Source of the DNA: Enterobacteria phage vB_EcoM_IME540 | Direction: 5' to 3' (one strand) | DNA length: 64,000 nt | Sequence record: MT150133.1 | Shown here: piece by piece, positions 26,640 through 61,061 of the stretch | Layout of the letters: each line of letters opens with the position of its first letter | How positions within the stretch are numbered: the stretch's first letter is position 1 | Translations under genes and position numbers: made by a program | Notes under the pieces: model-generated | What the model was told of the DNA's origin: nothing | The model's database searches: none | The model's input: the letters and a program-made list of their open reading frames with translations, nothing else

Positions 26640-27587
26640 TTAATAAAAATCAGCTACTGTAGCGGTTAGTTTAGACAAACCAGATTTAACGAAATAAGGA
26701 TAGACTTTAGATTTCGAAGGTTTGTTATACGTATTATATCTTTCAGTAATTAAAGCAACAATATCATCTGGAATAAAGTCCATATCAATTAAGATTTGGT
26801 TTTCACAGAAACGTTCATATTGTTCTTCAGTAAGAAGTGTTTTAATTATATCATGGTCATAATAATTCAGAGCAATCGCTTCAAGTTCCTTGGCACGAGT
26901 GCTAGGAGTACGTTCGCCTTCAACCATTGTCAACCAGTAATCACCACGAACTTTAATACTCGCGACGTTATCTTTACGGTCACCTTTAACAACCTTAGTC
27001 ACGCAATCAAGCAATGCATCACCAGATTTTGTTTTGACGAATTTTTTCTGCATTGGGGACCATTGTTTTACACCAGGGAATTTATGAAGTTGGGTAAAGT
27101 CACCATCAGAAGAACCAATCATAACAGGGTGACCTAAAGCCGTAAGGATACGAGTCAATACAGCAATATGGTCATCAGCCTCGATTGTATCGATATTCAT
27201 AACAATATAAGGCATATTATGTTCCAATTCATCGACAATAATATGCATTGCTGTAAATAGGCCTTCCCAGTCAAATGGTGATTCGTCACGAGCCTTAGCA
27301 CGGTTTTTCTTATAATAAGAAGAATAACGACGACGCCAATAACCTGATTTGGAGTTATCAACACAAATAATTAATTGGTTGTAACCTTGTTTACGGAAGT
27401 CTTTAATGTTTTTCTTAATTGAATTCAACACGAGGTGTCGAAGCATTGCGGTAGTTACTTTAGGAAATCCAGCATTCTCACCAAACTCTTGGAAAGCCGC
27501 AGCCATAATGATTTGGCTGAAATCTAGGAGTAAAAATCCATCTTTTTGTTGGTCTTCTTCAGGAAGTAAAAAATCTAAATCGTTCAT
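26640..27587 (-). CDS. rnh: RNase H (5'-3' exonuclease, FEN family)
   Basis: Near-colinear with T4 RNase H. Confidence 0.88.
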   Translation of the reverse strand: MNDLDFLLPEEDQQKDGFLLLDFSQIIMAAAFQEFGENAGFPKVTTAMLRHLVLNSIKKNIKDFRKQGYNQLIICVDNSKSGYWRRRYSSYYKKNRAKARDESPFDWEGLFTAMHIIVDELEHNMPYIVMNIDTIEADDHIAVLTRILTALGHPVMIGSSDGDFTQLHKFPGVKQWSPMQKKFVKTKSGDALLDCVTKVVKGDRKDNVASIKVRGDYWLTMVEGERTPSTRAKELEAIALNYYDHDIIKTLLTEEQYERFCENQILIDMDFIPDDIVALITERYNTYNKPSKSKVYPYFVKSGLSKLTATVADFY

Positions 27588-51942: not shown

Positions 51943-52509
51943 TTATGCAAAATGAATATCAGCATACTCAACGATAAAGCTCTCAGGAACAACCTTAAAG
52001 GTTCCAAGGAATACGATGTTATAGAGCTTAACGCCTTCTTCAACCCATTGGTCTGTGATGTAACCGGACATACTAGTGGTTTCATAAGTCGGACCATACT
52101 TGCAATTGTATTCAAACGGTTTAGGTGAAACGAAAAAGACACCTTTACCCAATTTCCATTTGAAATCAACACCAACATGAGATTGGTCAATAGTTTCAAC
52201 GTCTTGAGCTACTACGCCACGGATATCATTGCTTTCACATACATACCTATCATGGGATTCAACTTCTTCAACTACAGGAGCGATGTATCCGGTAAATTCA
52301 GTCGATTCCAAGAATTTAGCACGCACATAAGCGAATTGAGTTTCAGTCTGGCCATTTTTAGGAATGATACGCACTTTTACTTCAGAATTTTCTACACTGA
52401 CACCTTCTTTAAGTTGGATGCTAACAACTTCAACTAAACGGCCTGCAGCTTTTGAACGAGACTTTTTGGATACACGAACGATACCGCCGATATCGGAAAT
52501 AGTAATCAT
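51943..52509 (-). CDS. hypothetical protein, paralog of 52583..53338 (shared C-terminal motif)
   Basis: C-terminus ITDQWVEEGVKLYNIVFLGTFKVVPESFIVEY aligns with VTDQWVEDGVELLNVVHAGDFSVVPRSAVVNVL. Confidence 0.5.
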   Translation of the reverse strand: MITISDIGGIVRVSKKSRSKAAGRLVEVVSIQLKEGVSVENSEVKVRIIPKNGQTETQFAYVRAKFLESTEFTGYIAPVVEEVESHDRYVCESNDIRGVVAQDVETIDQSHVGVDFKWKLGKGVFFVSPKPFEYNCKYGPTYETTSMSGYITDQWVEEGVKLYNIVFLGTFKVVPESFIVEYADIHFA

Positions 52510-54822: not shown

Positions 54823-56154
54823 TCAAACGTAATAAGCGTCAGTACGAGCACGAGTAATACTAACATAAGCCAGCTGTGAAGCTAAATTCACATCAGCCAT
54901 GTGCATACACGGGGTATAGATGAAACTGTTCTGGACTGTGAGGCCTTGTGATTTATGGACCGTGCTTACAGGAAGAGCTCGAACCTTAGTAAACATTCTC
55001 TTAGCTTTCCAAAAATCAGCCCACTTAGGTTTCTTACCCGTTCCACGCATGGCTTTGTACTCAGTAGCAACCTTAGCCAAGAAATAATGAAACTTCTCAA
55101 CTGAAGCCTCATCGATAACCTTTAAATGCTCTACGTAATACTCATCATCTTCATCGACGGATTCTACTTGAAGGTCCCAGTAATTAATCATTTGACGGGT
55201 GCCTACATCCTTAGCAGACAAGAACAATGAGGTGTGGTTCACATCCAGAATACGAACCATTTGTCCGTTATTAAAAATGGTTTCAGAGAATTTCTTACCG
55301 TCGTATTCAAGTTCCTTCATAAAAGGCTCTTGCATCACTAGGATTTCGCCCTTGATATAAGGCGCATCGGTTTCATAAAGCTTTTTACGAATAATACTAT
55401 TCAGCTTTTCAACCGATTTATTTGTATAAGCAAACATCCTATTTTCAAATAAGGCATCCGCGTCTTTTACGATGGAAAAATAATTCATCATAAAATCTTT
55501 TAAAGCAGTTTGAGATTTAAAGCCATGGACACCATGTCCTTCGAATACACAATCTCTAAACCATCCGCCATTACGGATTTCGGTAGCCACCTCAATGATA
55601 GGAGCATTACTACGCATTACTTCAGTCAAATGCAATTGCTTGATTTTTGGATGAGTAAAGAACGGAGACAACTGTGGACTACCATCACTTCCAGGTTCCA
55701 CTGGCTGTAGCTGAGCTCTGTCGCCAATCCCTAATACAGTACACCATGGCGGCACAGAAGATTCGATAATCTTAAACAGCTTACCGTCAATCATCGAGCC
55801 TTCATCAACGACCAGCACATTACATTTGCTCAAGTCAGGAGCTTCGCGTTGTTCAAAGATGTCCTGGTCTTCGTATGTGGTAGGGTTAATCTTTAAGATT
55901 CTATGGATTGTTGATGCTTCTTGACCTGCGAGTTTCGACAACACCTTTTTGGCCGCATGAGTAGGTGCAGTCAAAATAACTCCGAGTTCACCATTCTTGA
56001 CTAGATGGTCAAGAATAAATTTGGTAAGGGTTGTTTTACCCGTACCGGCAGGGCCATTCAATGTAATCCATTCGCCCTTACGTCGTTTAATGGCTTCAAT
56101 GATTTCTTTAAAAGCCGTCCTCTGGCCGATATTCAAGTCTTCAAATGTAATCAT
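54823..56154 (-). CDS. dda: DNA helicase Dda (SF1B)
   Basis: 443 aa; near-colinear with T4 Dda including Walker A GPAGTGKTT. Confidence 0.92.
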   Translation of the reverse strand: MITFEDLNIGQRTAFKEIIEAIKRRKGEWITLNGPAGTGKTTLTKFILDHLVKNGELGVILTAPTHAAKKVLSKLAGQEASTIHRILKINPTTYEDQDIFEQREAPDLSKCNVLVVDEGSMIDGKLFKIIESSVPPWCTVLGIGDRAQLQPVEPGSDGSPQLSPFFTHPKIKQLHLTEVMRSNAPIIEVATEIRNGGWFRDCVFEGHGVHGFKSQTALKDFMMNYFSIVKDADALFENRMFAYTNKSVEKLNSIIRKKLYETDAPYIKGEILVMQEPFMKELEYDGKKFSETIFNNGQMVRILDVNHTSLFLSAKDVGTRQMINYWDLQVESVDEDDEYYVEHLKVIDEASVEKFHYFLAKVATEYKAMRGTGKKPKWADFWKAKRMFTKVRALPVSTVHKSQGLTVQNSFIYTPCMHMADVNLASQLAYVSITRARTDAYYV

Positions 56155-56447
56155 GCCAATTTTACTCGCTTAACATATAAAGTGTCTAAAACTAATTTAA
56201 GTTCTCGGGCCCGTTCTTCAGTAGGATATACGGTTTTAGTTTCCCGCTTATCAAACCACCATTTTCTAGGTGTGTACACTGTTTCAATGCGTCCCTTACT
56301 TAAATATAGTTTTGTAGTGTATGAATACCCAGCGCATTCTAAATCAGCAGCGGCTTTTGTGGAATATAAGGTCACCTTTCCTTCATATTCCAATGGAATT
56401 TCGTACCCATCTTTGTCCTTGTGAACTAATACGTATGCATAGTACAT
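56151..56447 (-). CDS. hypothetical protein
   Basis: ORF track (track start is GTG at 56450; ATG at 56447). Confidence 0.45.
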   Translation of the reverse strand: MYYAYVLVHKDKDGYEIPLEYEGKVTLYSTKAAADLECAGYSYTTKLYLSKGRIETVYTPRKWWFDKRETKTVYPTEERARELKLVLDTLYVKRVKLA

Positions 56448-56451
56448 CACG

Positions 56452-57198
56452 TTAACCTCTAATCAGTGAAAAAATTGAAGCATTCAGCGGAAGACCTTTT
56501 TTCAACTTCATTTTGTCAATAAAAGAAAGGTGTTCTAAACGCTCCAGACCTTGAATAATTTTATCATACATATCGTAACGCGTTTCTGCTTCAGACAATT
56601 TAAACTTGACACGCCAATCAGGCCCACCAATTAAAGATTTAAGACCCTTTTCCATAGTACCTATTGAAGCGTTAGAACCGTGGATACGAGCTTTAACCGC
56701 GATAACAGAAGGGGTCTTATCAGTAGCTCCTGATTTAATAAGGTCTTTAAGACGTTTTTCACGCTTTTTAAGACCTCTTTGGGTATCTTTAATATTTTTA
56801 ACGATTTTACGAATTTTATAATAATTATCGGGGGTAACTTTAAAACTATTAGGCATTTTAGAACTACCTGAAATACGGACCGCTAAACGGGTCTGGGCTC
56901 GTTTCAATTCATCTAGAGACAAATCGGCACGTAAACTGTTGTACTTAACTTTAACTGGGATTACATTACCTTCAATATAACCAATATCGTTATTAAAACG
57001 TTCAAATGAAATCTTATCATTAACTGAATTCTCATCAAAGCACTCGCCTGAATAAGCACACACTTTTTGTTCGAGAAGTCTACGAACATACTTACTAGAT
57101 AGGTTGAAGTCCTTACCGCGTTTATAAGCAGAAGCTTTGGTGTGTTTGCGGCGGTTGTAAACCTTTAACTCAAATTCAGTAGTCATGATTTTTCTCAT
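56452..57198 (-). CDS. hypothetical protein at the position of T4 srd
   Basis: 248 aa, adjacent to dda; own early promoter; assignment by position and size only. Confidence 0.4.
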   Translation of the reverse strand: MRKIMTTEFELKVYNRRKHTKASAYKRGKDFNLSSKYVRRLLEQKVCAYSGECFDENSVNDKISFERFNNDIGYIEGNVIPVKVKYNSLRADLSLDELKRAQTRLAVRISGSSKMPNSFKVTPDNYYKIRKIVKNIKDTQRGLKKREKRLKDLIKSGATDKTPSVIAVKARIHGSNASIGTMEKGLKSLIGGPDWRVKFKLSEAETRYDMYDKIIQGLERLEHLSFIDKMKLKKGLPLNASIFSLIRG

Positions 57199-57219
57199 CT
57201 TACGGACGATTAGTTGATA

Positions 57220-57255
57220 GGTCTATAGTATCATGTTGCTAGGTAAAGTAAACAC
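57220..57255 (-). promoter_or_regulatory. early promoter
   Basis: GTTTAC, 17 bp, TG-extended TACTAT. Confidence 0.6.
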
Positions 57256-57322
57256 TTTTTTGCTTTAAATTTTCGACGGTATAATGAATCAAGGACTTTG
57301 CCTTTCAATTAAACCGGGTGGT

Positions 57323-57937
57323 TCAGTAAGAAAGAACGGAAAGATTCCAAATGGTGTAATTATTCCATTTAGGATTTCTCTCAATAGAGTCTATGCGCAG
57401 CGTAGTTCCCGCAGGGAACATCATCTCATCTTCATCATTGATTAATTGTAAGTTTGCTACACGGGTAGATTCAGGAAATGCACCTGGGAACTCTTCAGGG
57501 GGCGCGGCACATAACATTTTAAAGATTTCTTCCTGATAATTGTACACAAATGGTGCATCATTAATACAAAAGATATTAAATGTGCCGTAGAAGTTATAAG
57601 ATGCGAAGTTACGAGCTACATTGAAATCTTTTGAGAAGCTCATTACTCGGTCGAATTCAATTACGGCACCTACACACATAGTAGATTCAAGATATGCCAT
57701 AGTCTTCTTAGAAATCCCACGGTACAACTTGTCAGGCACTGCAGAAGTCAGGTTCTTACGAATAATTTTGTTCAGAGTTTCCTGGATATTATCTGGTTTA
57801 TTTTCCATGCACTGCCAGAGGGTACTCTGTTCTAAATCAGAATACACCTCATCAATTTCTATCTGAGTATTCTCACGGAAATCATCGCATTTGGCATTGT
57901 TGATAAATTCTGCTAATTTATGGCTTGGATATAACAT
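57323..57937 (-). CDS. Mod-like ADP-ribosyltransferase (ModA/ModB family)
   Basis: R-S-ExE type pattern (LYRG, SFSKD, acidic EDEMMF) and position after srd/dda as in T4 modA/modB. Confidence 0.65.
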   Translation of the reverse strand: MLYPSHKLAEFINNAKCDDFRENTQIEIDEVYSDLEQSTLWQCMENKPDNIQETLNKIIRKNLTSAVPDKLYRGISKKTMAYLESTMCVGAVIEFDRVMSFSKDFNVARNFASYNFYGTFNIFCINDAPFVYNYQEEIFKMLCAAPPEEFPGAFPESTRVANLQLINDEDEMMFPAGTTLRIDSIERNPKWNNYTIWNLSVLSY

Positions 57938-57957
57938 ATTATTCTCCTCAGTTGGTA

Positions 57958-57994
57958 GAAAGATAGTACCACAAGCTTCCTTGCCTGTAAACTA
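57958..57994 (-). promoter_or_regulatory. early promoter for Mod-like gene
   Basis: GTTTAC/TTTACA, 17-18 bp, TACTAT. Confidence 0.5.
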
Positions 57995-58561
57995 AAAATC
58001 CAACATTTTTAAATGAATTGTTTTATACTCGATTTCGTACGGGTCTCTTTTGACGGTTTCGATTGCAACAATCTCAAATCGCGATTGGCTGGAGACCATG
58101 AACTCACATTCAGTTTCAACCATATCATAGAGGTCAATACGAGTTTCATCAATTTCAAGGTCGTCTACATTCCCTGCAAGAACAAGGTCGATAGCATGGT
58201 TGTAGTAGTCGAAAATGAACGGTGCATTCCTGAGACTTAAAATGGTTTTGGTTCCGTATTCCCATGCCCCTGCAAACTGACGAGCCTGAGAGTATTGTGT
58301 ACTAAAAGAAGTAACGCGACCAGGAGACCATTGACACCCAACAGAAAGAACTTCAAGTTGCTCAAGTTCTCTGGTGGTAATCCCACGATAAAGCTCTACC
58401 GGAACCGCTGAAGTAACATGCTTACGAACTAGCTTATCAAGGTCGTAATGTAAGTTAGGGTCTTTTTTGGCATCTAGACATTTTTCTAAAAGATTCTGTT
58501 CGTGTTTTGAGAATTTGGAATTGATTCGGTCTTGATAAAGACATTTTTGTTCGATGTTCAT
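57992..58561 (-). CDS. Mod-like ADP-ribosyltransferase (ModA/ModB family)
   Basis: LYRG, TSFSTQYSQAR, ECEFMVSS motifs; paralog of adjacent gene. Confidence 0.65.
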   Translation of the reverse strand: MNIEQKCLYQDRINSKFSKHEQNLLEKCLDAKKDPNLHYDLDKLVRKHVTSAVPVELYRGITTRELEQLEVLSVGCQWSPGRVTSFSTQYSQARQFAGAWEYGTKTILSLRNAPFIFDYYNHAIDLVLAGNVDDLEIDETRIDLYDMVETECEFMVSSQSRFEIVAIETVKRDPYEIEYKTIHLKMLDF

Positions 58562-58564
58562 ATG

Positions 58565-58585
58565 ACCTCCAGTGATTTAGAGGTC
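58565..58585 (-). promoter_or_regulatory. 5' leader hairpin sequestering the Shine-Dalgarno of the Mod-like gene
   Basis: Inverted repeat GACCTC/GAGGTC with 9-nt loop; 3' arm contains GGAGGU 5 nt before AUG at 58561. Confidence 0.4.
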
Positions 58586-58616
58586 ATTATAACATGAAGG
58601 GAGGAGGTGTAAAACT
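58586..58616 (-). promoter_or_regulatory. early promoter for upstream Mod-like gene
   Basis: TTTTAC, 17 bp, TG-extended TATAAT. Confidence 0.5.
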
Positions 58617-58805
58617 TTATTTTACCCAAGGAGCCCAGGGTGGAGGGTCTAAGTAATAAGAAGCTAGGTCACTAAGAACATCTTTAGGCAACTTAAAACC
58701 ATGCTTCTGTATAATCATATCAAGTTCGTTGACGAGGTCAACAGGCGGCTCCTGAGTTGTTTCAGGCTCAGGGTCCGGAATGACAAACATATCAAATAAG
58801 TCCAT
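58617..58805 (-). CDS. hypothetical protein
   Basis: ORF track. Confidence 0.35.
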   Translation of the reverse strand: MDLFDMFVIPDPEPETTQEPPVDLVNELDMIIQKHGFKLPKDVLSDLASYYLDPPPWAPWVK

Positions 58806-59296
58806 TAGTAACCACCGATAGGACCGTAGCCATACATACGAGCTCGCGCCTTAGCATCGCAAATAGCGTCTTCAGTCATGGTAAAGCGCAATCCAATATC
58901 AAAGTGTTTCCAAATCTGACGTTCGACTTCAGTAAGGTCTTCGGTGGTGGAAATCAAATATGTATGACCTTTAAGACGCTCATTTGCCATTTTATCTCTA
59001 TCTTTATAGAAAATGTCCATTGTTCCTTCAGCATAAGGGTCTGCCGGATAACGATAACCCTTGATATGTAATGCTTCGGCCAGGCTAAAAGGACAACCTT
59101 CAGCAACATCAACATTTTTATTATGATACGCCTTCATTAGAATATTTTCTGGCGGCTTAATATCTTTTAATCGTGTTTCTAACTGGGTTATAGAATTCGT
59201 GCCATTATCGACAAGGATAAGACATGCCGTAGCATCATAAGGTCGCGTTTGTCCGGCAGAATCACGTACATGGAATTCGAGTTCATAGACTTTCAT
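58805..59296 (-). CDS. hypothetical protein
   Basis: ORF track. Confidence 0.45.
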
Positions 59297-59450
59297 TATA
59301 TTTTCCTCTTTTTAGTTTACCTACTAAAGGACCATCCGGAATTTTATTTTCTTGGATGTATTTCTCGTTTTCTTCCATCATTTTACTACCAATTTTAAGA
59401 AGCAAATCCAGTGCCTCTTTAGCTTGTTTTTCGGCCTCTTCAGTAGTCAT
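59283..59450 (-). CDS. small hypothetical protein (55 aa)
   Basis: Hand-translated [23 protein letters not shown]...; ATGA overlap with upstream stop; below track cut-off. Confidence 0.3.
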
Positions 59451-59647
59451 GATTTATCCCCATAGATGTCACGCATAATTCTAAGAGCTTCGCGTTCTAA
59501 TTTCTTTTCGCGTTCTTCACGGATACCTTTAAGAATCCATTCTTCGGACTCGCGTTTCATTTCTGCATTAGCTTGGTCCAACCACCCGTCATCAAGATAA
59601 TCACCAGGACGGTCTAGCCAATCTTTAAGCCATGATAAAGGTTTCAT
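59447..59647 (-). CDS. hypothetical protein
   Basis: ORF track (track start is TTG; ATG at 59647). Confidence 0.4.
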
Positions 59648-59964
59648 CAATCACACGAGCCGGACGATGAGCCACAGCTTCCTGAGTCAGAATAAGACGA
59701 ATCGCCGGTCCATGAACTAACAGCAGCCGCAACCATAATAGGAGTACTATCAATATGGCTTGTGCGACGAGCTTCTAAATGTTCTTTAAACTTTTTAGAA
59801 TTCAAAGGAAGGGCACCCAGGCCCACATTACCTGCTTTTTCAGGTTGCCGTATAACTTCTTCCATCATACCATCGCCCACATAAACATATTCCTTCAGAC
59901 CTGAGATAGGAACCACCCCTTCACCAGGTTTGGTCTTGAAAAAATTCTTAAGCCAACGAATCAT
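59647..59964 (-). CDS. hypothetical protein
   Basis: ORF track; ATGA overlap with upstream stop. Confidence 0.4.
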   Translation of the reverse strand: MIRWLKNFFKTKPGEGVVPISGLKEYVYVGDGMMEEVIRQPEKAGNVGLGALPLNSKKFKEHLEARRTSHIDSTPIMVAAAVSSWTGDSSYSDSGSCGSSSGSCD

Positions 59965-60206
59965 AGGAAACCTCGTTTAAATTCAACTTTATCAATATCA
60001 TCAGTCTCGTGACGGATTTCGGCATTAAATTCGATAGAACCGTCTTCATGCATCATAAATGAATGGACAATAACTTCGGTATACCAAGGCGTATAGAAGT
60101 ACTTTTTCAATACATGATTAGCGATAATTTCATCTAAAGTTTTATTTGGTTTAATCCAACGATTTAACATAGCATTCTCCTCTATAAGATAAGACCATCT
60201 TAACAT
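59961..60206 (-). CDS. hypothetical protein
   Basis: ORF track. Confidence 0.4.
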   Translation of the reverse strand: MLRWSYLIEENAMLNRWIKPNKTLDEIIANHVLKKYFYTPWYTEVIVHSFMMHEDGSIEFNAEIRHETDDIDKVEFKRGFL

Positions 60207-60240
60207 AACCTTCTTAGAAAGTAAACCCTTAAAACCAAAA

Positions 60241-60258
60241 AAGGAACCCGAAGGTTCC
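60241..60258 (-). terminator. rho-independent terminator after soc
   Basis: AGGAACC-UUCG-GGUUCCU followed by UUUUUUGGUUUU. Confidence 0.65.
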
Positions 60259-60264
60259 TTATAA

Positions 60265-60498
60265 TTAAACTACTGGGGTAGGCGTAAACATCGCCGCGTT
60301 CTTAGTTCGCCAATCGGCTGCATCAGTTACTACAGTAGTGTATGCCGCCTTTTCAGAAGGAAATGTCTGATAGTGTGCATTCGCAATACGATGCTCGTTT
60401 GAATAGATTTCAAACGGAACAGATACTTCAACACCTTTAACTTCTTTACCTTCACCAGCCGGATGCGTAAAGGTTTTGATATTAACGAAACCACCCAT
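60265..60498 (-). CDS. soc: small outer capsid protein
   Basis: 77 aa; resembles T4 Soc (VNIKTF...AHYQTFPSEKAAY); TATAAATA late promoter upstream, UUCG terminator downstream. Confidence 0.8.
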   Translation of the reverse strand: MGGFVNIKTFTHPAGEGKEVKGVEVSVPFEIYSNEHRIANAHYQTFPSEKAAYTTVVTDAADWRTKNAAMFTPTPVV

Positions 60499-60529
60499 AA
60501 TTAACTCCTTTGTTGTTTAATTACAGGTG

Positions 60530-60537
60530 TATTTATA
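60530..60537 (-). promoter_or_regulatory. late promoter for soc
   Basis: Exact TATAAATA on minus strand ~30 nt upstream of soc ATG. Confidence 0.65.
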
Positions 60538-60539
60538 AC

Positions 60540-61061
60540 TTAATAACCTCGGTCCTGGCGAGCAAAGTTCTCGGCATTTTTCAGATAATACAGTTTAAAG
60601 ATTTCTTCAGCAGTCAGACCAAGACCTTGGAACATATTCAGAACGAAATGGAGAATATCGATCATTTCAAATTTAATTTCGAGCTGGTCTTCAGGAGACA
60701 AATCGTTAATCAAGGTTTCACGACGTTCAGCATGCTGAGCTTTCCAAGGCTTCCATACTGCTGATGCATCTTTTTCACCATTGCTCATACCACCAAGAGA
60801 AGTCAGAAGTTCACGGAATTCATCATCAATATAATCTTTCTGATTACGCAGCCAATCAACAACTTCACCTGCAGTAGCCAAATCATCAGGATGACGGTTG
60901 TATTCAGGTTTATCTTTAGATAAACGGACCTGTAATGATTTCTGCATATCAAGCATAACCTGCAGAGGGTCTTTATCTTCATGAATCAGAGCATTAAAAT
61001 AAGCTTCCTCAGCTTTATCAACACCAGCAATTAGGTTTGCGCATTCGTTAAAGTGTGCCAT
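60540..61061 (-). CDS. 56: dCTPase/dUTPase (MazG-like)
   Basis: Resembles T4 gp56 (MAHFNECA...DPLQVMLDMQ...IDDEFRELLTSLG...FARQDRGY); start at MAHFNE. Confidence 0.85.
   Translation of the reverse strand: MAHFNECANLIAGVDKAEEAYFNALIHEDKDPLQVMLDMQKSLQVRLSKDKPEYNRHPDDLATAGEVVDWLRNQKDYIDDEFRELLTSLGGMSNGEKDASAVWKPWKAQHAERRETLINDLSPEDQLEIKFEMIDILHFVLNMFQGLGLTAEEIFKLYYLKNAENFARQDRGY

Follow-up and report, generated by a model that had tools for sequence, protein, structure and literature searches.

The DNA analysed here, a stretch of 64,000 nucleotides (nt) of Enterobacteria phage vB_EcoM_IME540 (sequence record MT150133.1; hereafter the window), comes from a JS98-like Dhakavirus of the T4 family, and between positions 57200 and 58900 it is 86-97% identical to phages vB_EcoM_FB, QL01, IME08, JS10 and JS98. 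On its minus strand lie two adjacent genes for ADP-ribosyltransferases (ARTs), modB and modA. The upstream one, modB, is preceded by an early promoter of the sigma-70 type whose -10 and discriminator region is complementary to the Shine-Dalgarno (SD) sequence and start region of the gene itself. The genes and the parts of this arrangement are the following.

58561..57992, minus strand: modB orthologue, 189 amino acids (aa), an R-S-ExE mono-ADP-ribosyltransferase and the upstream member of the pair, assigned from its open reading frame (ORF) and PHROG 832.
57937..57323, minus strand: modA orthologue, 204 aa, paralogue of modB, assigned in the same way (ORF and PHROG 832).
58586..58613, minus strand: early sigma-70-type promoter of modB, with the -35 TTTACA at 58613-58608, the TG at 58594-58593 and the -10 TATAAT at 58591-58586.
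58577..58580, minus strand: predicted transcription start of modB, that is 58579 +/-1, lying 7 +/-1 nt past the -10.
58587-58578, minus strand: 5' arm of the inner stem, AUGACCUCUA, which covers the discriminator as well as the final 2 nt of the -10 hexamer and lies upstream of the predicted start.
58571-58562, minus strand: 3' arm of the inner stem, UGGAGGUCAU, which holds the SD GGAGG at 58570-58566 and reaches position -1 of the AUG.
58550..58598, minus strand: the whole structure, made of the inner stem and an outer helix of 8 base pairs (bp) between 58598-58591 and 58558-58550.

The inner stem consists of 10 bp closed by a 6-nt loop and folds with -14.3 kcal/mol (z = -4.35); a single one of 200 dinucleotide shuffles folded equally well. 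In a context of 65 nt the full structure reached -19.3 kcal/mol. The 5' side of the outer helix includes the TG of the extended -10 and its partner is the segment of codons 2-4, while the AUG (58561-58559) is placed in a 3x3 internal loop between the inner stem and the outer helix. An independent repeat finder recovered arms of 16 nt at 58554-58569 and 58580-58595, with a complementarity of 81%. An initial annotation of this DNA had described a 6-bp inverted repeat with the GGAGG in its 3' arm, ending 3 nt before the AUG; the repeat is present, with the core GACCTC/GAGGTC, but it is larger than proposed, being part of the 10-bp stem with its outer helix, and its 3' arm ends at position -1 and not 3 nt before the start codon. 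A chance palindrome was ruled out by the shuffles together with the conservation described below. Rfam covariance models gave no match at E <= 1 on either strand of the region 56000-61000.

The modB promoter agrees with the consensus at 11 of 12 positions, with a spacer of 16 nt and the extended -10 TGtTATAAT (consensus scan), and it is conserved in T4, RB69, JS98 and others. Since the -10 of T4 early promoters is numbered -12..-7 (PMC1524935) and corresponds here to 58591-58586, transcription of modB is expected to start at 58579 +/-1. The 5' arm of the inner stem, overlapping the -10 and ending at about +1, would therefore be missing from the mRNA made from the modB promoter, which should be unstructured in this region. 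In agreement with this geometry, an RNA begun at 58579 keeps at most 2-3 of the 10 nt of the 5' arm and has a folding energy of 0 kcal/mol, and the probability of the SD being unpaired is 0.55 in the promoter's own RNA vs 0.00 in RNA reading through from upstream. With the arm absent from the own mRNA, the hairpin could form only in RNA initiated upstream.

This bears directly on the mechanism that had been suggested from the hairpin alone, namely that it belongs to the 5' leader of the modB promoter's own transcript and throttles its translation. A stable stem of -14.3 kcal/mol that masks the GGAGG in front of a toxic enzyme speaks for such a leader, and the hairpin does lie directly downstream of the promoter as far as the DNA is concerned. 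For the RNA, however, that description is misleading, because the 5' arm begins inside the -10 and a start 6-8 nt past the -10 leaves at most 3 nt of it, with the 0 kcal/mol and the 0.55 given above; the 5' arm is likewise excluded from the own RNA in the homologous hairpin-bearing leaders. We rejected the own-leader riboregulator on promoter geometry and give it next to no chance of being correct. Translational control by an SD-masking hairpin survives from the initial annotation in so far as the structure is stable, unusual and conserved with compensatory changes, and its folding energy did not prove too weak; what changes is the RNA species concerned, which would be the read-through RNA and not the gene's own leader.

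Candidate sources of such RNA are the co-directional genes located 5' of modB.

58617..58805, minus strand: modA.2 homologue, 62 aa, co-directional and 5' of modB (ORF and annotation comparison).
59296..58805, minus strand: mrh-like gene/modA.3, proposed, with modA.2 and genes farther upstream, as the source of read-through RNA.

Read-through into modB is plausible because no terminator-like site was predicted on the minus strand between 60241 and 58590, the soc terminator being located at 60260-60241. From the stop codon of modA.2 (58619-58617) it is 19 nt to the outer helix and 30 nt to the inner stem, distances at which a ribosome that terminates there cannot open the stem. The terminator scan found nothing at the modB hairpin itself, where no T-run follows the stem and the 3' arm runs into ATGAACATC; an intrinsic terminator at modB was rejected on the missing U-tract and this empty scan. 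As a separate observation on the same intergenic gap, JS98, IME08, WG01 and other Dhakaviruses have an insertion of about 230 bp, holding one more small ORF, between modA.2 and modB, which is absent from the window. This insertion stops precisely at the modB -35 (JS98 locus L003, 1785-2020, compared with 58616-58614 of the window), so that, judged from the sequences, an indel boundary separating the JS98 lineage from the window is located at the promoter cassette of modB.

In order to place the hairpin in a wider context, 43 loci were fetched and reduced to 31 distinct leaders, 26 of which bear the hairpin. The -10/discriminator pairs with the segment from the SD to the AUG in all leaders of Tequatro-, Mosig-, Dhaka-, Karam-, Kanagawa- and Jiaodavirus, in the Klebsiella-phage Biddle group and in contig L031; the element is absent from leaders L036-L039. 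The promoter of the hairpin-bearing leaders is of the GTTTAC...TATGAT type. The layouts of T4 (GTTTAC...TATGATAGCTTCTGAAGTATACGGAGGCTATCATG) and RB69 are those of the window with different stem sequences, and in JS98 both promoter and hairpin are unchanged. Across the hairpin-bearing leaders the read-through RNA folds with -16 to -27 kcal/mol vs 0 to -5 kcal/mol for the own RNA, and the probability of an unpaired SD is 0-0.24 vs 0.2-0.76, respectively. Only 0-3 of the 9-16 nt of the 5' arm (10 in the window) lie downstream of the predicted start in these leaders. In the Biddle and Jiaodavirus groups the pairing register is shifted by 5 nt, with the same masking as a result. The leader of modB in Krischvirus ECD7 (locus L016, 1120-1200) reads TTGACA...TATTAT, directly followed by GCCTCC...GGAGGC and then TTTTTT; its promoter and anti-SD geometry are as in the window, with an additional tail resembling that of an intrinsic terminator.

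The folding was unusually stable in each of 13 representatives, with z between -3.5 and -8.4; out of 500 shuffles, 0-1 reached the same stability. In an unbiased MAFFT alignment of 15 leaders, a structure of 13 pairs had 93.7% of its cells paired vs 28-54% when the partners were slid, and changes on both sides occurred at 4 pairs, for example AU:7/GC:7 and AU:7/GC:6. Furthermore, when arms were swapped between leaders, the cognate combinations had a mean of -19.9 kcal/mol vs -12.9 kcal/mol for the chimeric ones.

These comparisons also allow the pairing to be assigned to RNA or to DNA. An inverted repeat running from the -10 to about +18 could regulate the promoter as DNA, either as the operator of a dimeric protein of phage or host or as a cruciform, and both its location, typical of repressor operators, and the conserved position of the repeat fit this idea. 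A protein operator would nevertheless be expected to keep its sequence, whereas here the complementarity is conserved and the sequences of the arms are not, and two registers are in use. As many as 6 G.U pairs, which in DNA are mismatches, occur in the stems. Of the 26 hairpin-bearing leaders, 24 have a sense strand that folds more stably than the antisense strand, with a margin of 1.8-14 kcal/mol; only the two Jiaodavirus leaders deviate. As read from these sequences, the G.U pairs and the strand asymmetry point to sense RNA rather than to a DNA operator, a role that we consider very improbable for the repeat.

The masking fold is not a general property of the early promoters in this DNA. A scan of the window covered 28 gene junctions resembling early promoters, and modB was the strongest outlier of them (z = -5.9, own RNA 0 kcal/mol); the leaders of modA and srd were ordinary. 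A masking fold as a common trait of T4 early promoters was consequently ruled out, modA, srd and most other junctions of the window being without it. The same scan brought up several stem-loops of other kinds. Two early-type promoters, at ATG 63709 and ATG 21997 on the minus strand, carry stem-loops in which the -10 TACTAT is inside the 3' arm, with the stems GGTCTATGGTA/TACTATAGACC (z -4.0) and AGGCTATGGTA/TACTATAGCCT (z -3.3), respectively; they resemble the PeSL (promoter-early stem-loop) elements described below, show compensatory differences between both copies and do not mask the SD. At the motB-like gene starting at 52509 on the minus strand, a stem-loop surrounds the promoter -10 (GAGAGCC...TATAAT...GGCTCTC), again with the SD not masked, and T4 motB (locus L042) has GGGACC...TATAAT...GGTCCC, the pairing being kept relative to the window and the sequence changed. 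A layout like that of modB was seen at 27587 on the minus strand, the start of a 315-aa gp47-like exonuclease, where TATAAT is followed by GGACCTCT...AGAGGTTCAT-ATG, the 5' arm begins in the -10 and the 3' arm spans the SD region (-12.8 kcal/mol, z -2.55); this layout is not conserved in T4, where 47.1 is upstream.

Stem-loops of this sort provide the main rival explanation. Arbiol et al. described early promoters with stem-loops over the -10 or between the -10 and +1, one of them with terminator activity, and PeSL-like sequences in JS98 (PMC2839356). A PeSL-type element at modB would act as an insulator or attenuator that terminates or attenuates upstream transcripts or stabilises their 3' ends, possibly also as a recombination hotspot, and the overlap with the SD would be secondary. 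In favour of this we count the other stem-loops of the window that overlap a -10 and spare the SD (at ATG 63709, at ATG 21997 and at the motB-like ATG 52509 with its compensatory differences from T4 motB), the insertion of about 230 bp ending at the modB -35 in the JS98/IME08 lineage, as cassette shuffling predicts, and the TTTTTT after the equivalent hairpin of Krischvirus ECD7. In no Tevenvirinae leader, on the other hand, is the stem followed by a U-tract; the 3' arm passes directly into the AUG and the coding sequence, the terminator scan is empty at the site, and the stems are not of the GGGG/CCCC type. A pure attenuator would moreover leave the position of the stem free, whereas the 3' arm contains the SD in all hairpin-bearing leaders, whichever of the two registers they use, and also in ECD7. 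PeSL-type attenuation and SD masking can coexist, and we regard the former as an unlikely account of the modB hairpin.

A role in RNA processing or decay was weighed in the same manner. The hairpin might shield the GGAG of the SD from RegB, the T4-type endoribonuclease, in the long RNA, or serve as a target of RNase III, thereby setting the lifetime of the mRNA and not the access of ribosomes. RegB does cut GGAG in the SDs of early genes and is hindered by secondary structure (PMC3014915, section 8), and stems of 17-19 bp occur in some homologues. The modB sequence GGAG-GTCATAT, however, agrees with the consensus of strong sites, GGAGRAYARAA (PMC3014915), at only 4 of 7 positions, as does that of T4, and we rejected a strong RegB site at the modB SD on this count; the stems are also shorter than typical substrates of RNase III. 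Such a role, which could coexist with SD masking, appears improbable.

The explanation that we favour, and hold to be probable, is that the -10/discriminator of modB doubles as the strand that masks its SD, so that the hairpin silences only RNA initiated upstream and leaves the RNA of the modB promoter translatable. One stretch of DNA would have two roles, as -10 and discriminator of an early sigma-70 promoter and, in upstream-initiated RNA, as the pairing partner of the SD and start region of modB. The polymerase would start about 7 nt past the -10, within the 5' arm or immediately after it, giving an mRNA with an unstructured leader of 18 nt and an open ribosome-binding site. Transcripts coming from upstream (mrh.2 ... 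modA.3 - modA.2), whose existence and amount we infer, would carry both arms and form the hairpin of about -19 kcal/mol, which would bury the GGAGG, flank the AUG and block binding of the 30S subunit. Translation would in this way be autonomous to the promoter: synthesis of the toxic ModB would be confined to the time when its own early promoter fires and would scale with that firing, and modB would be insulated from upstream early transcripts. In T4, modA, which overlaps modB, would be gated along with it; modA of the window has its own promoter and no hairpin.

Several points weigh against this explanation. The upstream promoters are also early, and read-through RNA would arrive at modB within tens of seconds, so that a benefit in timing is much harder to see than in the case of e and soc, which are late genes. 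With two early RNA species, any gain would have to come from dose or insulation, and the likely benefit would be insulation and control of the dose of a toxic enzyme rather than early/late timing. The AUG of the window hairpin, lying in the internal loop, has a probability of 0.61 of being unpaired, and masking in the Dhakavirus structure therefore depends on the SD. The independent events behind the covariation are few, with roughly 4-5 stem solutions. Stem-loops overlapping the -10 recur, finally, in early promoters of T4-type phages (PeSLs, PMC2839356), and together with the examples of the window that leave the SD free this means that part of the selection may serve something other than SD masking.

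A broader proposal would be that ModB, and in T4 the translationally coupled ModA, is translated exclusively from one promoter, that this provides negative feedback of the ARTs, and that modB represents a class of promoter-autonomous early genes of the Tevenvirinae, of which the gp47-like gene of the window would be an example. ModA and Alt are described as ADP-ribosylating the alpha subunit of RNA polymerase (RNAP) and altering the use of early promoters, and insulation of modB would then close a loop by which the ARTs hold down their own production. We put this forward tentatively and think it rather unlikely to hold as a whole.

Should the favoured mechanism be true, a conserved device tying the translation of ModB to one early promoter would tell how T-even phages dose a dangerous enzyme, ModB attracting much interest at present as the enzyme that attaches NAD-capped RNAs (NAD, nicotinamide adenine dinucleotide) to ribosomal proteins, a reaction named RNAylation (PMC10931766). 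Of the many stem-loops at early promoters of T4-type genomes that lack an explanation, at least one would gain a function, and the principle of a promoter inside an inhibitory hairpin, as in e and soc, would be extended from late genes to sigma-70 early genes. In practice, RNA-seq coverage alone would be insufficient to infer the expression of modB, and mutations of the discriminator should deregulate ModB with the protein untouched.

Regarding the proteins, the adjacent paralogous Mod-like ARTs announced by the initial annotation, with the upstream start at 58561, were confirmed, as was their R-S-ExE signature. The two proteins share 32% identity (E = 6e-28) and both match PHROG 832, 'RNA polymerase ADP-ribosylase', in a profile search (modB product, E = 1.4e-37; modA product, E = 2.6e-44). 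ModB of the window is 60% identical to ModB of RB69 and 32% to that of T4; for ModA the corresponding values are 59% and 36%. The R, S and ExE columns do not vary across an alignment of 14 sequences, which took in ModA and ModB of T4 and RB69 and, from other genera, their single Mod proteins. The motif residues, R59/S85/E151/E153 in ModB and R73/S100/E169/E171 in ModA, are in register with R72/E163/E165 of T4 ModA and R73/E171/E173 of T4 ModB. A tblastn search with the window protein matched annotated modB in 1068 phage records, and single-protein scans of viral contigs returned close relatives only. The pair of the Dhakaviruses is already known and annotated, the names modB and modA being given to the counterparts of these two ORFs in the records of JS98, IME08, Bp7 and RB69, and the enzymes are not new.

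The upstream protein was modelled with AlphaFold2 (pLDDT 85, pTM 0.80). The top 50 Foldseek matches of the model in the PDB were all R-S-E ARTs (Certhrax, C3bot, C3larvin, VIP2, iota Ia, CDTa), with a probability of 1.00, E about 1e-6, a TM of about 0.5-0.56 and 10-14% sequence identity, and a C3/Certhrax-type ART fold is predicted for ModB. With the C3-like, Certhrax and VIP2 toxins it has the fold and the R, S, ExE signature in common; it differs in being a phage enzyme of small size that has an additional helical segment at its N-terminus, and in the low identity just given. A phmmer search of the window Mod protein against PDB sequences gave no match, and a Pfam-A scan returned no family for either Mod protein. 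PF26816 is precomputed on homologues in a large protein collection, and the missing Pfam-A match is a gap of the library version, not the lack of a family. In T4, ModA targets R265 of RNAP alpha, and ModB ADP-ribosylates and RNAylates the ribosomal proteins S1 and L2 and also acts on EF-Tu and trigger factor (PMC3014915, PMC10931766). By analogy with T4, a NAD-dependent ADP-ribosylation or RNAylation of RNAP alpha, S1, L2 and EF-Tu is putative for the proteins of the window. Overexpression of ModB is lethal (PMC3014915) and ModA is highly toxic (PMC2988021).

Downstream of modB the locus continues with the following features.

57991-57986 (TTTACA) and 57968-57963 (TACTAT), minus strand: early-type promoter of modA, with no masking hairpin.
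57198..56452, minus strand: srd homologue (PHROG), followed by dda.1 and dda.

The minus-strand order mrh-like/modA.3-modA.2-modB-modA-srd-dda.1-dda is that annotated in T4, RB69 and JS98. The modA leader folds with -6.4 kcal/mol (z = +0.25). A terminator-like hairpin of 8 pairs with a 6-nt loop, 57990..57969 on the minus strand, comes right after the modB stop, inside the spacer between the -35 and -10 of modA, and is followed by TACTATCTTT. The srd homologue matches the Srd PHROG with E = 6.5e-92, and its N-terminal approximately 110 residues also match PHROGs of HNH endonuclease and endonuclease VII at about 1e-15. The T4 pair has the same genome position, between modA.2/mrh-like and srd-dda.1-dda, and the same PHROG as the pair of the window. 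In T4, however, the two genes overlap (ATGA) and modA lacks a separate promoter, whereas in the window and in RB69 a gap of 54-63 nt separates the genes and modA has its own early-type promoter.

Compared with known systems, modB shares with the PeSL cassettes of RB49/phi1-type phages a strong sigma-70-like early promoter with a stem-loop at the -10 or just before +1, placed in an intergenic gap and, in related genomes, next to an indel boundary. The stem-loop of PeSLs is drawn apart from the SD, is often GGGG/CCCC and is read as a terminator or attenuator (PMC2839356), whereas at modB the 3' arm is the segment from the SD to the AUG and the U-tract expected of a terminator or attenuator is missing. 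The shuffling of ORFans at indel boundaries that goes with PeSLs may have a counterpart in the ORF of about 230 bp that abuts the -35 in JS98, IME08 and others; the gene to which the element is attached, modB, is nevertheless conserved and no ORFan.

The closest precedents are the T4 genes e, soc, 49 and I-TevI, in which an inhibitory hairpin with an internal promoter covers the initiation region (PMC3014915, section 29); Aeh1 mobE and T4 segB also belong here. In the four T4 genes a helix sequesters the SD and/or the AUG in upstream-initiated RNA, and a promoter in or next to its 5' strand yields a shorter, translatable RNA (PMC3014915). modB is not among the examples of this 2010 review, neither a promoter nor a stem-loop is annotated at the T4 modB locus in the T4 GenBank records, and we found no description of a promoter-in-hairpin arrangement for modB in the literature, of which the older T4 papers were covered in part. 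The geometry of modB is that of the four T4 genes, with a start site that is predicted, and by analogy with them the entry of upstream transcripts into modB and their poor translation are predicted as well. The internal promoter of e, soc, 49 and I-TevI is late (gp55, TATAAATA) and serves early-versus-late timing, whereas that of modB is early, TTTACA-16-TGtTATAAT, its -10 hexamer itself pairs with the AUG region, and both RNA species are early. modB is a variant of this type and not a strict member, and what would be new is an early sigma-70 version of the known masking-hairpin principle at modB, with a layout conserved in T4 itself.

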